Shown: positions 4,618 through 23,788 of the stretch, piece by piece
How the letters are laid out: every line of letters starts with the position of its first letter
How positions within the stretch are numbered: the first letter of the stretch is position 1
DNA from: Falsibacillus pallidus
GTDB lineage: Bacteria; Bacillota; Bacilli; Bacillales; DSM-25281
Reading direction: 5' to 3'
Length of the DNA: 24,000 nucleotides
Assembly (NCBI RefSeq): GCF_003350505.1
Contig: NZ_QQAY01000014.1
Span: forward strand, 1-24,000
The notes under the pieces: generated by a model
What the model was told of the DNA's origin: nothing
The model's input: the letters and a program-made list of their open reading frames with translations, nothing else
Databases searched by the model: none
Made by a program: the position numbers and the translations under genes

Positions 4618-5201
4618 CCTACAATAAACGTTAAATCGTCTTCTGCATTACTATAGCTTCGTTCCAATTCTTGAGCAATATACTCTAAAGAAAAGGAATC
4701 TTTCAGCAGACTTTTGGTGCTTGAAATCCTTAAACCATCTGAATGGATTAAAAATCTTGCACCTTCTTCAAAGGGATATCGATGGGTACTGAATAGTTGC
4801 GGCCTGCCAGATAAATAACCTGTGACAGGTAGTGGGTAGGTTAATTTACCGGTAGGGGAGTATAAATAGAAGCGGATGTTTCCAACGCAGCTATAAACAA
4901 AATCCTTGGTCTTGAAATAAGCTTTGACAACGGCAACTGCAGCACCGCGTTTATTGAGCAGCACCTGATTGCAGAGCTTCATGAGCGTTTCTACATCTTC
5001 CTCTTTATTCTCCTCTACTACTTGAGCTACAGCTGAAGATGCTTCATTGGCGTATTTTCCGCTGCCTAATCCATCCGCCAGCACGCAAAGGAAATATTCA
5101 TCTGTAGCTGTGAAGTAATAGCTGTCGCCGCACTGTGCTTTACCTGCTTTTGACGTTTGATGCGAAAAGACTTCCACTTCCTTCTGCAAAAGATGGTTCA
5201 T
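4605..5201 (-). CDS. rsbX: RsbX, PP2C-type feedback phosphatase of the sigma-B stressosome pathway
   Basis: The 198-aa protein has a PP2C/SpoIIE-like motif (CGDSYYF...LADGLGSG). It is the last gene of the rsb-sigB cluster, and its ATG overlaps the sigB stop codon (ATGA). Confidence 0.9.
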   Translation of the reverse strand: MNHLLQKEVEVFSHQTSKAGKAQCGDSYYFTATDEYFLCVLADGLGSGKYANEASSAVAQVVEENKEEDVETLMKLCNQVLLNKRGAAVAVVKAYFKTKDFVYSCVGNIRFYLYSPTGKLTYPLPVTGYLSGRPQLFSTHRYPFEEGARFLIHSDGLRISSTKSLLKDSFSLEYIAQELERSYSNAEDDLTFIVGSLL

Positions 5202-5998
5202 AAGGAAGACCTTTCTGAAAATGCATCTTCTTCAAGGATTGCCTCTTTAAGCTTCTTGATCGCTTTTCGCTGCAGCCTTGATACGTGCATTTGAGAAATA
5301 CCCAGCATCTCTCCGGCATCTTTCTGGCTCATGTTATCAAGGAACGTATATTGAATGATTGAACGCTCCCTGTCACTCAGTACATGAAGAACCTTCTCCA
5401 GTACAAGCTTTTGGTTGGTTCTTTCATATCCCTCATCAACATTCCCAACAATATCGAGCAGTGTTACTGTACTACCTTCTGAGTCCGCTTCGATTGTATG
5501 ATCCACAGATAGAGCTTGATAGCTTTTACCCATTTCCATCGCTTCCAATACTTCCTCTTCGGAAATACCCAGATGGTCTGCGATTTCAATAACGCGGGGA
5601 GATCGCTGAAGCTCTGTGGTCAATTCTTCAAGCGTTGCTTTTATTTTCGGTCCAAGCTCCTTAATCCTCCTAGGGACGTGGACGCTCCATGTTTTATCTC
5701 TTAGAAACCTTTTGATTTCTCCCACAATCGTCGGGATGGCAAAAGCTTCAAAAGATTTACCGAAAGAATCATCATAGCGCCTGATGGCACCAAGCAAGCC
5801 GATCATGCCGACTTGATAGATGTCTTCATGGTATGACTTCCCTTTGGAATACTTTCGGGCAATGGATTCGACCAGTCTCTGATAGTGGACGACCAGACGA
5901 TCTTGGGCCTCTTGATCACCGTTTTCCTGGAATGCTTTAATCCAGCCATTCACTTGGTCGCGGGTTTGAAAATGATTAGGTTGAGATAGATTCGACAT
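5198..5998 (-). CDS. sigB: RNA polymerase sigma factor SigB (general stress)
   Basis: The protein is highly similar to B. subtilis SigB (KGKSYHEDIYQVGMIGLLGAIRRYD, FAIPTIVGEIKRFLRDKTWSVHVPRRIKELGP, GISQMHVSRLQRKA). I set the start at ATG 5998 (MSNLSQ), which follows an AGGTGG RBS. The ORF-track TTG at 6022 is an over-extension into rsbW. Confidence 0.93.
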   Translation of the reverse strand: MSNLSQPNHFQTRDQVNGWIKAFQENGDQEAQDRLVVHYQRLVESIARKYSKGKSYHEDIYQVGMIGLLGAIRRYDDSFGKSFEAFAIPTIVGEIKRFLRDKTWSVHVPRRIKELGPKIKATLEELTTELQRSPRVIEIADHLGISEEEVLEAMEMGKSYQALSVDHTIEADSEGSTVTLLDIVGNVDEGYERTNQKLVLEKVLHVLSDRERSIIQYTFLDNMSQKDAGEMLGISQMHVSRLQRKAIKKLKEAILEEDAFSERSSL

Positions 5999-6452
5999 CC
6001 CTATCCACCTGCTCTCCTTCAAGGTACTTAGTCATTAAGACTGTAACCCCTTCCTTATGGTGGATTTTCACTTCATCCATAAGGCTTTCGATGAGGTATA
6101 AACCTAAACCTCCCTCACGTAAAAACTCAACTTCGAGACTTTCGTGATAAGGTCCGATTTCCTCGCGTGTTTTTTGGAAATCAAAGCTTGTACCATGATC
6201 GGAGACCATGATTTCCAAACGATTGGCATAGATGCCGAATCCAATGAGGACATCGCCTTCCTCATCTTCTTTATAGGCATGCTGTACGGCATTGGTGATT
6301 GCTTCACTTGCAGCGATTTTCAAATCCTCAATAGAGTCATAGGAAAATCCCATTCGACTGGCGATTCCGGAAATAGTCAGCCGGATAACCCCAACAAATT
6401 CTGGTTTTCCTGGAACCTTCATCTCGATGTAATCAAAATCCTCCATCATCAT
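5976..6452 (-). CDS. rsbW: RsbW, anti-sigma-B factor / serine kinase
   Basis: The protein shows a DYIEMKVPGKPEFVGVIRLTISGIASRMGF...ITNAVQHAYKE GHKL-type kinase signature. Its start overlaps the rsbV stop codon (ATGA). Confidence 0.93.
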   Translation of the reverse strand: MMMEDFDYIEMKVPGKPEFVGVIRLTISGIASRMGFSYDSIEDLKIAASEAITNAVQHAYKEDEEGDVLIGFGIYANRLEIMVSDHGTSFDFQKTREEIGPYHESLEVEFLREGGLGLYLIESLMDEVKIHHKEGVTVLMTKYLEGEQVDRDVESIST

Positions 6453-9783: not shown

Positions 9784-10134
9784 TTAAAATTCAATAAGTC
9801 CTACACTAATCTGCAGGGCTTCATCCACTTTTTCCATCATTTCATCATCCAAATGAGTGATCTTGTCTGTTAAGCGCTGTTTATCTATTGTCCGGATTTG
9901 CTCCAGCAATATAACGGAGTCACGTTCAAATCCATAGCGCTTTGCGTCAATTTCGACGTGCGTCGGCAGTTTTGCTTTTTGAATTTGTGCGGTTATGGCA
10001 GCGACAATTACAGTGGGACTAAACCGATTCCCTATATCATTTTGGATGACTAAAACTGGACGTACACCGCCTTGCTCAGATCCAACTACCGGGGAAAGGT
10101 CTGCAAAATACACGTCACCACGTTTAACAATCAA
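9784..10134 (-). CDS. ndoA: Type II toxin EndoA / MazF-family mRNA interferase
   Basis: The 116-aa sequence [88 protein letters not shown] is almost identical to B. subtilis NdoA. It uses a TTG start. Confidence 0.96.
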
Positions 10135-16246: not shown

Positions 16247-16272
16247 TACGCATCTACGGGAGGAAAGTTTCA
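16247..16272 (-). promoter_or_regulatory. Sigma-W (ECF) type promoter upstream of ydbS-ydbT
   Basis: The minus strand reads tgTGAAACtttcctcccgtagatgCGTAaataag. This equals the TGAAAC-N16-CGTA sigma-W consensus. From memory, ydbST belongs to the sigma-W regulon in B. subtilis. Confidence 0.65.
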
Positions 16273-16288
16273 CAAAAAAATAAAGGAT

Positions 16289-16315
16289 GCTTCACATGGA
16301 AGCGGCTTTTGACTG
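16289..16315. repeat. Left copy of a 27-bp direct repeat (a degenerate duplicate of the cshA terminator) bracketing repeat element A
   Basis: gcttcacatggaagcggcttttgactg matches 16746-16772 at 25 of 27 positions. Looser similarity extends into the upstream aaaataaa tract. Confidence 0.8.
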
Positions 16316-16717
16316 GGAAGGTGTCTTGAGAAAGTGCCTAGAAAGTGCCTGTCACGCCCCGGATTTTGTCGATTTTTGTAAAATTCAATTGGATCCATCA
16401 ATATGCTTAGCTTGCATTAGGTATATTTAGTAGAAAAAGTGCAAGTGGCGCATAAGATGGTGAGTTTGGCGCATAGCCCCAACCGGCCGGCGCATAGCAG
16501 AGGATTTTTCGCGCATAGAGCCAGAACAGCGGCGCATAGCCGATGGTTTCTGGCGCATAGAGCCTGCAGAAGAGGCTAATCTCCCTTGGAATCCTTGCTT
16601 TTTCGTCATTTAGTCACTCTAACGGACACCATCTGAACCTTTCACCACATCTATATGCTTATTTCGAGGAACATTCACCATCATTTCCACTCATGTCCCT
16701 TCTATTTTCCACCCCAA
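16316..16717. repeat. Copy A of an unclassified ~0.4 kb noncoding dispersed element
   Basis: It aligns by eye along its whole length with 22600-22977 in the same orientation. Exact shared blocks include gtgagtttggcgcatagcccc, accggccggcgcatag, cccttggaatccttgctttttcg, tttagtcactcta and cggacaccatctga. Confidence 0.85.
16447..16560. repeat. Array of six GGCGCATAG motifs at an exact 21-bp period (core of element A)
   Basis: The motif starts at 16447, 16468, 16489, 16510, 16531 and 16552. Variants are ggcgcataa (repeat 1) and cgcgcatag (repeat 4). The 12-bp spacers are unrelated to one another. Confidence 0.9.
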
Positions 16718-16733
16718 TGAACAAAATCAGACG

Positions 16734-16765
16734 AAAATAAAAGCCGCTTCACAAGGAAGCAGCTT
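16734..16765 (-). terminator. Rho-independent terminator of cshA (contains the right copy of the 27-bp direct repeat, 16746-16772)
   Basis: The minus strand reads AAGCTGCTTCcttgtGAAGCGGCTTttattttcg. The stem is 10 positions with one mismatch, followed by a T-rich tail. It starts 8 nt after the cshA stop codon. Confidence 0.75.
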
Positions 16766-16773
16766 TTGACTGA

Positions 16774-22476: not shown

Positions 22477-22599
22477 CTCTTTCCCCCAACATGTTTTTTC
22501 ACAAATCCCCTAAGCCATTTTACTATGAAATAGCCGCGGATAATAGTCTGATTATTCAATCTAGAATAAAAAATGAGGCTTCTTGCCTAAGTGCGTACA

Positions 22600-22977
22600 G
22601 GAAGGTGACTGTTACGCCCCGGGTTTTGTCGATTTATGTAAGAACCACTGGAATTCATTGATATGTGCAGATTTCTATAAGTTTATTTAGTCCAAAAAGT
22701 ACCAGTGGCGCATAGGAGTGTGAGTTTGGCGCATAGCCCCTACCGGCCGGCGCATAGTCGAGGGATTTTCGCGCATAGAACCAGAGAAATCGGTGCATAG
22801 CCGACTGATTCTGGCGCATTAGAGCCTCAGGAAACGGCTATTTACCCTTGGAATCCTTGCTTTTTCGACGTTTAGTCACTCTACCGGACACCATCTGATC
22901 CAATTGCCACATCCATAAGCCTATTCCGAAGAACATTCGCACTAATTTGACCCCATCACCCGCCAATTTCCTCACCA
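22600..22977. repeat. Copy B of the unclassified ~0.4 kb noncoding dispersed element
   Basis: It is collinear with 16316-16717 in the same orientation, with the same block order and the same 6-unit array. Confidence 0.85.
22707..22822. repeat. Array of six GGCGCATAG-type motifs at 21-bp spacing (core of element B)
   Basis: The motif starts at 22707, 22728, 22749, 22770, 22792 and 22813. One interval is 22 bp. Repeat 5 reads ggtgcatag and repeat 6 reads ggcgcattag. Confidence 0.9.
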
Positions 22978-22981
22978 AATA

Positions 22982-23011
22982 GAAAAAATCCGCCAATCAC
23001 CTCGGCGGATT
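22982..23011 (-). terminator. Rho-independent terminator of the 257-aa gene
   Basis: The minus strand reads AATCCGCCgaggtgattGGCGGATTttttctatt. The stem is 8 bp and perfect, followed by a T-run, 3 nt after the stop codon. Confidence 0.85.
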
Positions 23012-23014
23012 CCT

Positions 23015-23788
23015 TTATTTTACGAAAACCTTCCATTCCTTGGTTTTCCGGTCAAAGACTATCTTCCCATCAAGGGGATTAGCCGTTATATTTTGGTATT
23101 CTTCGTACATCTCATCCATATTGACGAAATCGCCGATGACCCAAATGGGAATCTCGATTTTCGTCCTGCTCTGTTCTGCCTTTTCGATCGAAAATAAGAG
23201 TCCTTCTTTCATATCTTCTATAAATGGATAAAGAATTTCTTTCGGCATCACAGGGTAATCTTTTCGCTTTTTCAGTCCAAGAAATGATTTTTCACCTTTA
23301 AAGCTGCTGAGTTTATGGGATAGAGCGGTGCCAAGTACTCCGTAAAAGTCATCCATTGAACGATAATACGTTTTATTGAACCAGCCGTCATCCTGCGCCA
23401 GATACGCAAATTGATTATTCAATTTCCGGTAGAAAGGCAGTCTGAGGTGGCTTTTTGAATGGCTTAAATATAATAATTCAGCGATTTCCTGCCCTTCAAG
23501 CTGATCAAGGGATTCTTCGTCCTCAAAATCCAGCCAGCAGAACCCGCCATATTGATGCACTTCTTCCTTTAAGAGCTTATCGATTTCTTCATCCCCGACA
23601 TATTCTAAAAGCGTATGGCGGTTAAATTCACCATCTTCAAAACGATGTTGCAGCAATAAAAGCTTCCCCGGCAGTTTGGGGACACCTGACATGAACTCTT
23701 TGAATTGAAGCCCATGTGATACGACATATTGATCTGAATGGTTTACATGAACATAGATGAGATTCCGCACATCCTGTGAATGTTTCAA
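23015..23788 (-). CDS. Hypothetical cytoplasmic protein, about 257 aa, acidic, no recognised domain
   Basis: This is a long clean ORF. I set the start at TTG 23788 (MKHSQDV), 7 nt after GGAGGG. The ORF-track TTG at 23818 reads through that RBS. Confidence 0.65.
   Translation of the reverse strand: MKHSQDVRNLIYVHVNHSDQYVVSHGLQFKEFMSGVPKLPGKLLLLQHRFEDGEFNRHTLLEYVGDEEIDKLLKEEVHQYGGFCWLDFEDEESLDQLEGQEIAELLYLSHSKSHLRLPFYRKLNNQFAYLAQDDGWFNKTYYRSMDDFYGVLGTALSHKLSSFKGEKSFLGLKKRKDYPVMPKEILYPFIEDMKEGLLFSIEKAEQSRTKIEIPIWVIGDFVNMDEMYEEYQNITANPLDGKIVFDRKTKEWKVFVK

Follow-up and report, generated by a model that had tools for sequence, protein, structure and literature searches.

The 24,000-base pair (bp) stretch of DNA analysed here, referred to as the window, comprises positions 1 to 24,000 of contig NZ_QQAY01000014.1 (assembly GCF_003350505.1) and originates from Falsibacillus pallidus rather than from a Bacillus sensu stricto; its YdbS and the F. 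pallidus protein at NCBI are 100% identical. Its gene order matches the ydcI–sigB operon–alr–acpS–ydbT–ydbS–cshA–murF–ddl region of B. subtilis, with all genes on the minus strand. Two intergenic regions in the window each contain an array of six short direct repeats with the core word GCGCATA. These arrays, A and B, form the centres of two paralogous intergenic elements of approximately 400 bp (~16316–16726 and 22585–22965), which are 81% identical and are both bracketed by terminators. Copy A sits between the cshA terminator and the SigW-type promoter of ydbS, and copy B between the terminator of a gene encoding 267 amino acids and a DUF4937 gene. The parts of both elements are listed in Table 1.

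In array A, the GCGCATA cores start at positions 16448, 16469, 16490, 16511, 16532 and 16553, so that all five intervals measure 21 bp; in array B they start at 22708, 22729, 22750, 22771, 22793 and 22814, with a single interval of 22 bp. These positions bear out the preliminary description of this DNA, which had reported six motifs at an exact 21-bp period and a second copy with the same six motifs and one 22-bp interval. The repeated unit had, however, been described as six identical 9-mers, starting one nucleotide (nt) before each core (16447 to 16552 in array A). This is correct for the GCGCATA core but not for the full 9-mer, as GGCGCATAG is present exactly in only four of the six units of array A; unit 1 reads GGCGCATAA and unit 4 reads CGCGCATAG. 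The invariant part of these units is GCGCATA, with T[C/G] flanking it on the left and A or G on the right. In array B, the core at 22793 has become GTGCATA through a G-to-T change, and the core at 22814, GCGCATTAG, carries a 1-nt insertion. Exact GCGCATA words occur 11 times in the window against 2.1 expected, a number reached in none of 100 shuffles, and 10 of the 11 fall inside the two arrays. The repeat also has a super-period of 42 bp, since a T-tract, TTYT[C/G], precedes units 2, 4 and 6 and is absent before units 1, 3 and 5; this is why Tandem Repeats Finder reports a period of 42 bp. The A/T-rich tract that had been noted to the left of array A is indeed present, the GC content being 0.30 at 16360–16439. 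Arrays A and B are 93% identical in the motif and 67% identical in the spacers, the latter because the elements are paralogous over their whole length. With spacers this similar, the two window copies alone are insufficient to show that selection acts on the motif only.

Sixteen non-redundant copies of the element in F. pallidus, providing 96 units and 80 intervals, were compared. Their consensus is T[C/G]GCGCATA[A/G], with each core base conserved to 94–100%, and the intervals measure 21 bp in 75 of the 80 cases, 20 bp in four and 22 bp in one. The conserved part spans 10 nt and the spacer 11 nt; outside the T-tract that precedes units 2, 4 and 6, the spacers carry approximately 0 bits of information. 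Between dispersed copies (119 pairs), the motif is 85% identical and the spacers 39%, so that the free spacers claimed earlier are found across the larger family but not between the two copies in the window. The units are homologous position by position, as seen for example in the endings of unit 2, G(G/A)CCG, and of unit 4, AAGTG, which indicates a fixed six-unit structure and not a drifting minisatellite. Motif and phase are thus under selection while the spacers are not, and the six-unit array is an old, fixed structure. The family comparison also substantiates the earlier view that a motif and its phase are conserved here in a sequence that does not code for protein and is no simple, homogenised tandem duplication: the other copies retain both the motif and the 21-bp phase, no conserved open reading frame (ORF) crosses the array in the 16 copies, and no known noncoding RNA family in Rfam matches it.

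Table 1. Parts of elements A and B in the window and, in the last row, phage loci with related repeats
Feature	Position or locus	Strand	Remarks
Left 46-nt direct repeat	16270..16315	.	Bidirectional terminator-like hairpin 16289–16303; parts element A from the ydbS promoter
Upstream module, copy A	16329..16378	+	AGAAAGTGCCT twice, then GTGCCTGTCACGCCCCGGATTTTGTCGATTT; holds the Spo0A-box-like word TTTGTCG
A/T-rich linker, module to array A	16379..16444	+	GC about 0.30
Array A	16446..16562	+	Six T[C/G]GCGCATA[A/G] units plus spacer, exact 21-bp period
3′ box, copy A	16575..16586	+	GGCTAATCTCCC; exactly one period past unit 6; family consensus GGGWAWWTYCACC
C-rich, G-poor tail, copy A	16587..16726	+	GC skew −0.44 to −0.63
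Right 46-nt direct repeat	16727..16772	.	Bidirectional cshA terminator hairpin 16739–16767
Weak hairpin and T-run, distal end of element B	22565..22589	-	Second terminator, by reading the sequence; absent from the empty L123 site
Upstream module, copy B	22602..22635	+	GTGACTGTTACGCCCCGGGTTTTGTCGATTT
Array B	22706..22824	+	Six units; one 22-bp interval, one G-to-T change, one 1-nt insertion
3′ box GGCTATTTACCC and C-rich tail, copy B	22835..22965	+	
Terminator of the upstream 267-amino-acid gene	22983..23015	-	Bounds element B
Phage loci with 22-bp repeats	L125, L130, L134, L140, L165; L131, L133, L138, L146, L150, L152, L154, L155, L160		

A scan of species-representative genomes for three GCGCATA words at 20–22-bp steps returned at least 120 loci, with 66 Bacillales among the matches listed. 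The F. pallidus reference chromosome (FAL1) has at least 26 further arrays at 14 loci among these matches. At three of the loci the elements form tandem higher-order arrays, with repeats of approximately 330 bp ×5 in L031, 331 bp ×3 in L063 and 392 bp ×3 in L049; the array in L031 is interrupted by an insertion sequence (IS) of the IS3 family. BLAST similarity between dispersed loci is confined to the array, sometimes together with the upstream module. Read in the orientation of GCGCATA, the element consists of an optional module, GTGCCTGTCACGCCCCGGnTTTTGTCG, a linker, the six units, the 3′ box GGGWAWWTYCACC, which follows unit 6 by exactly one period, and a C-rich, G-poor tail of 90–200 nt, which ends at an intrinsic, usually bidirectional terminator shared with a convergent gene. 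The sequence of the tail is weakly conserved whereas its composition is kept across the family, the skew downstream of the array being below −0.2 in 18 of 23 F. pallidus arrays. The 27-nt module of copy A is also found upstream of arrays in L006, L041, L082, L095 and L117. The module contains a word with the full form TTTGTCG(A/G)A, located within 16345–16375 and 22605–22635 in the window.

Several further features were observed at these loci. The Spo0A-box-like words TTTGTCG and TTTGTCGAA are enriched four- to fivefold within 250 bp of the arrays and always lie on the GCGCATA strand. In L117, a cluster of DnaA-box-like words (TGTGAATAA, GGGGATAAT and GTCGGATAA) is located just upstream of the module of one element, at ~2720–2830. 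In L049 (1–4651 and 4748–5952), the tandem trio immediately follows a complete 16S–23S–5S operon with its terminator and is itself followed by a convergent gene with a T-box leader. Two IS elements lie inside repeat elements, each at two loci with 100% identity within the pair (L006 4609–6032 and L031 862–2285; L063 7182–8000 and L108 409–1227); one of the two belongs to the IS3 family and has a two-ORF transposase. An unrelated repeat of 95–120 bp, 80–86% identical between its copies and without a match in Rfam, occurs in L006 (7555–7673), L082 (2299–2417), L095 (5408–5501) and L079 (5807–5900).

In the window, a 46-nt direct repeat brackets copy A only. Its left copy (family D1) is 83% identical to the right copy at 16727–16772, and because each copy holds a bidirectional terminator hairpin, the cshA terminator appears to have a duplicate at the element's far side. 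Two unrelated terminators flank copy B instead. A SigW/extracytoplasmic-function-type promoter, TGAAAC-N16-CGTA, lies directly upstream of ydbS on the minus strand (16248–16273), which fits the control of ydbST by SigW in B. subtilis. In a metagenomic relative (L123) whose YdbS is 71% identical, the slot of copy B is occupied by one terminator and no element. The cshA–ydbS slot of the same relative (~10000–10130) contains a five-unit array with a period of 21–22 bp, a different core (TCGCGACTTTT or TCGCAACTTT) and gene-sense orientation. In F. albus, the element is present in neither the copy-A nor the copy-B slot.

We looked for signs of an RNA, a promoter or a mobile origin. Searches of the window and 17 loci against Rfam 15, at the gathering threshold and with E values up to 10, gave no match on the elements. 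RNAalifold predictions for both strands of the 16 copies contained no compensatory pairs, the only pairing being that of the invariant GCGC with GCGC, and folding z-scores for the two strands and a Rossellomorea intergenic region (−0.08, +1.15 and −0.49) were no better than those of shuffled sequences. A long hairpin between the G-rich upstream stretch and the C-rich tail in Rossellomorea is likewise unsupported (z = −0.49). Scans of single and tandem units for sigma-A promoters stayed at background level and revealed no conserved promoter; a −10-like xAxAAT word stands 22–23 nt past the final core, and does so in no more than roughly half of the copies. Comparison by hand with the consensus sequences for sigma-B, F, G, E, K, H, D, W and extracytoplasmic-function factors yielded no consistent fit. 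The 3′ box GGGWAW resembles a sigma-B −10 element, but no −35 element fits. BLASTN searches with the whole element against 72,556 plasmids and 50,697 phages found no match, terminal inverted repeats or target duplications were not consistent in the four copies inspected for them, and neither rep or par genes nor transposases are linked to the arrays, unrelated IS elements aside.

Three types of repeat to which the arrays might have belonged could be dismissed. CRISPR arrays require repeats of at least 23 nt, unique spacers of 26–72 nt and a leader or cas genes, and the present units combine a 10-nt conserved part with 11-nt spacers and have no cas-like neighbours. Type III toxin–antitoxin RNAs of the ToxI kind have repeats of ~34–36 nt upstream of a toxin gene; the present units are 21 nt and no toxin ORF follows, the flanking genes being cshA and ydbS or the DUF4937 gene. 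A miniature inverted-repeat transposable element or transposon end is not consistent with the lack of regular inverted termini in four copies and with a 46-nt direct repeat around copy A only.

Arrays with a period of 20–21 bp and the core CGCGCATAA follow gene terminators in many other Bacillales, including Rossellomorea, Fictibacillus, Metabacillus, Neobacillus, Lederbergia, Virgibacillus, Pontibacillus, Aquisalibacillus, Amphibacillus, Salsuginibacillus, Sporosarcina, Planococcus, Bhargavaea and others. Among them are long, homogenised arrays of 19–20 identical units as well as arrays with free spacers; variant cores (GCACATA, GCGCGTAAA, GCCCTTA and CGCAGATAAA) occur in neighbouring arrays. 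An orthologous locus in Sporosarcina contains 3, 8 and 19 units. At an orthologous Rossellomorea locus, a module, TGTCGGATTTTGTCGGTTAATCGACAG, shared with F. pallidus, is followed by four to five units and GGGTATAT, the counterpart of the 3′ box, and then by a second module, a GCCCTTA array, GGGTATAT again, a C-rich tail of 150–200 nt and a gene. In this genus, the Spo0A-box-like word forms TGTCGG-N5-TGTCGG together with an inverted CGACA, and in two loci (L016, reverse complement 5150–5300 and 5950–6150; L030, 3270–3400) the sequence is G/T-rich upstream and almost free of G, C/A-rich, for 150–200 nt downstream to a DUF2339 gene. In two families of phages, TGCGCATAAAC or TGCGCATACCCC is directly repeated 3–10 times every 22 bp, beside either an A/T-rich stretch or the start of a gene; such repeats, whose core word is almost the same, are probably operators or origin iterons.

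The orientation of the arrays is biased. At 12 of the 14 reference loci listed and in both window copies, i.e. in 14 of 16 cases in F. pallidus, GCGCATA runs antisense to the upstream gene, while among the matches listed in other genera it has the same sense as the 5′ neighbour gene in 35 of 44 cases. The orientation is therefore non-random in both groups, with opposite sign; 12 of the 14 F. pallidus reference loci fit a replication rule and a transcription rule alike. In the other genera, a sense terminator lies at most 300 nt upstream of 25 of the 43 array clusters among the matches listed.

An attractive, if still tentative, explanation is that the arrays are phased sites in double-stranded DNA for a sequence-specific protein, with a geometry like that of iterons or LytTR sites but without being a plasmid origin. 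We favour this explanation because of the invariant asymmetric word, the two-turn step, the phased T-tracts, the free spacers and the lack of RNA structure or a promoter. The six asymmetric 10-bp sites, two helical turns apart, would each accommodate one protomer, so that a complex could assemble cooperatively along one face of ~125 bp of double-stranded DNA, with the T-tracts before every second site aiding DNA bending. In terminator-insulated DNA at gene boundaries, such a complex would not be swept off by RNA polymerase. Its effect would likely be local, as a boundary, a roadblock, an operator-type complex or a titration sink, and would not concern replication or partition. That unrelated phages use nearly the same core in an operator- or iteron-like layout would, by analogy, count in favour of a site in DNA, and we infer that the reader is a protein and that it recognizes DNA and not RNA. 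An array of recognition sites had already been proposed by analogy with plasmid iterons. Selection on motif and phase supports the proposal, but the specific analogy with plasmid iterons is not supported, in view of the missing rep and par genes, the lack of similarity to plasmids or phages and the dozens of chromosomal copies, always intergenic and beside terminators.

A number of observations weigh against the protein-site explanation. The orientation of the arrays is strongly non-random, which would not be required of a symmetric DNA platform, and the composition of the tail is strand-specific. In other genera, the majority of arrays are placed between two co-oriented terminators, as a small transcription unit or a read-through 3′ extension would be. 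Several genera have a period of 20 bp or a mixture of 20 and 21 bp, so that the sites are not strictly on one helical face, and the IS elements inside several copies imply that single copies are dispensable. No candidate reader protein was found, nor did any recurrent neighbour protein emerge from an all-versus-all BLASTP comparison of 364 flanking ORFs and a Pfam search with 15 neighbours; these returned only orthologous synteny, SDR-type housekeeping genes and IS3 transposases.

Taken together, the orientation bias, the strand-asymmetric tail and the terminator–array–terminator layout show the involvement of a strand-specific process, which keeps both a role at the RNA level and an orientation-biased selfish repeat under consideration. 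An RNA-level element, to which we assign a lesser but appreciable likelihood, would be either a noncoding RNA made up of module, array, tail and terminator or a read-through 3′ extension; GCGCAUA or UAUGCGC would bind or titrate an RNA-binding protein, or the C-rich tail would serve as a Rho-loading or seed region. This includes the alternative offered in the preliminary description, a minus-strand transcript that titrates a protein. The orientation counts and upstream terminators given above agree with this, as do the second terminator downstream of many clusters, the end of the C-rich, G-poor F. pallidus tail at an intrinsic terminator and the co-oriented Spo0A-box-like word upstream of the arrays; moreover, an unstructured transcript is what a protein sponge would resemble. 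However, the scans detected no conserved promoter, neither strand shows covariation or excess folding energy, and read-through from the upstream gene would need a different transcribed strand in F. pallidus than in other genera. A step of 21 nt per site is also long for the oligomeric RNA-binding rings TRAP, HutP, Hfq and Rho, which counts against an RNA-level element. We consider it rather unlikely that the element is a selfish interspersed repeat or minisatellite without host function, tolerated only in neutral DNA shortly past terminators and spread by tandem amplification and ectopic recombination or by a trans-acting enzyme that recognizes the motif. This would account for the dozens of copies, the tandem higher-order arrays in L031, L063 and L049, the presence or absence between relatives, as in the empty copy-B slot of L123, the varying unit number at the Sporosarcina locus, the tolerated IS insertions, the lack of a link to any particular gene function and the long homogenised arrays in Pontibacillus, Sporosarcina and Virgibacillus. 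It is difficult to reconcile with the F. pallidus copies, whose spacers are saturated (39% identity) while the motif is kept to 85–100%, unit by unit: neutral decay would erase motif and spacers alike, so that the pattern would need selection acting in place, or else descent from more than 10 ancient master lineages. Terminal inverted repeats, a consistent target duplication and a linked transposase other than those of unrelated IS elements were also not found.

The remaining two alternatives appear much weaker. It is highly improbable that the arrays are iterons or a centromere of the plasmid type, i.e. a replication origin or partition site. Direct repeats of 21 bp with a conserved core, free spacers and an adjoining A/T-rich stretch would suit such a site, but the context lacks rep, par and DnaA boxes, the neighbours being cshA, ydbS, ddl, murF and the DUF4937 gene, and nothing similar was found among the plasmids and phages searched. 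Furthermore, one or few such sites per replicon would be expected, as opposed to at least 26 arrays at the 14 listed loci of one chromosome, some of them downstream of an rrn operon, and the long arrays in other genera neighbour housekeeping genes. That the array encodes a heptad repeat, (M-R-x5)×6, on the minus strand of copy A can be practically discounted. An ORF of 60 amino acids at 16427–16609 does read (Met-Arg-x5)×6 through array A and might be annotated by gene-calling software; in 13 of the 16 copies, two minus-strand frames stay open, which is explained by the lack of stop codons in the motif on that strand. Units of 20 or 22 nt break the frame in 5 of the 16 copies, copy B among them, the motif is invariant at all three codon positions including the wobble position while the spacer 'codons' are free, and one plus-strand frame has a stop in every unit. 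The ORF in copy A is an artefact of the repeat.

A broader possibility, for which the odds appear low, is that the elements of F. pallidus belong, as one branch, to a Bacillales-wide superfamily of 20–21-bp arrays with the core CGCGCATAA or close variants such as GCACATA, GCGCGTAAA and GCCCTTA, read by a conserved factor as polar boundary elements. Placed in a fixed orientation directly after terminators, these would halt RNA polymerase that reads through or runs antisense, or replication forks travelling in the wrong direction, at gene ends, including those downstream of rrn operons; if true, they would correspond in bacteria to the rDNA fork barriers or insulators of eukaryotes. Should a dedicated protein or RNA-binding factor read the arrays, F. 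pallidus would have ~200 or more specific sites, arranged in sextets at gene boundaries. With related arrays across Bacillaceae, Planococcaceae and allied families, this would amount to an unrecognised layer of chromosome or transcription-unit organisation in an order of bacteria that is well studied. The system lends itself readily to testing, offering a 10-bp word, a fixed phase and natural variants with a 20-bp period or an altered core. Even a selfish origin would make this a new repeat family comparable to STAR, BOX and REP and useful for strain typing. The family also matters for assembly and annotation, given the spurious 60-amino-acid ORF in one copy.

Several known systems resemble the arrays in part. 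The dif arm of Firmicutes differs from the XerC arm of proteobacteria. The latter, GGTGCGCATAA in E. coli and ACCGCGCATAA in Aeromonas, contains CGCGCATAA (PMC2731167). We treat this shared core, a similarity in sequence, as a lead only: dif occurs once per chromosome, near the terminus, and spans 28 bp, with two inverted 11-bp arms flanking a 6-bp core, in contrast to direct repeats of a half-site-like word at many loci, and a Xer/dif site was rejected on these grounds. The phage TGCGCATA arrays from IMG/VR also bear a resemblance: TGCGCATAAAC or TGCGCATACC recurs three to four times every 22 bp, with variable spacers, just upstream of a gene start. They differ in belonging to higher-GC, non-Bacillales-like phages, in having only three to four units and in being gene-linked and not dispersed.

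Plasmid iterons (RepA/pi/RepE type, or the 22-bp ×3.5 repeats of lactococcal theta replicons) are repeats of ~19–22 bp in two-turn phase that lie beside A/T-rich DNA and are bound cooperatively. The F. pallidus arrays share with them the tandem direct repeats in helical phase, as seen in the 75 of 80 intervals, and the conserved core with a variable remainder; unlike iterons, they are chromosomal, multi-copy and terminator-bracketed, without a linked initiator gene or plasmid homology. The sites of LytTR regulators (AgrA, ComE, PlnC/D) are imperfect direct repeats of 9–10 bp with a gap of 11–13 bp, approximately 21 bp from centre to centre, which places the monomers on one face. A 10-bp motif with an 11-bp spacer has this geometry. 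However, LytTR sites occur as one pair directly upstream of a −35/−10 promoter, as opposed to six sites with a different motif and no convincing promoter at dozens of loci, and no LytTR gene could be tied to the arrays.

Searches of the literature by sequence words and by topic returned no description of these arrays. The STAR elements of S. aureus, also a member of the Bacillales, are built from a 14-bp motif, T(G/A/T)TGTTG(G/T)GGCCC(C/A), with spacers of at least 40 bp (PMC3532100). They resemble the F. pallidus element in combining a short GC-rich motif at a regular distance with many intergenic loci, and their repeat number varies, with spacers that are conserved within a locus and differ between loci (PMC3532100). 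Their function and mechanism of spreading are not known (PMC3532100). The F. pallidus element thus has the short motif, regular spacing, locus-specific spacers and many intergenic loci of a STAR-like class, without homology to STAR. STAR elements show no helical-turn phasing and no sequence similarity to it, and the fixed six-unit array with its module, 3′ box and C-rich tail sets the F. pallidus element apart. STAR is the nearest described class, and the F. pallidus element is a noncoding repeat element with no earlier description in the literature searched.

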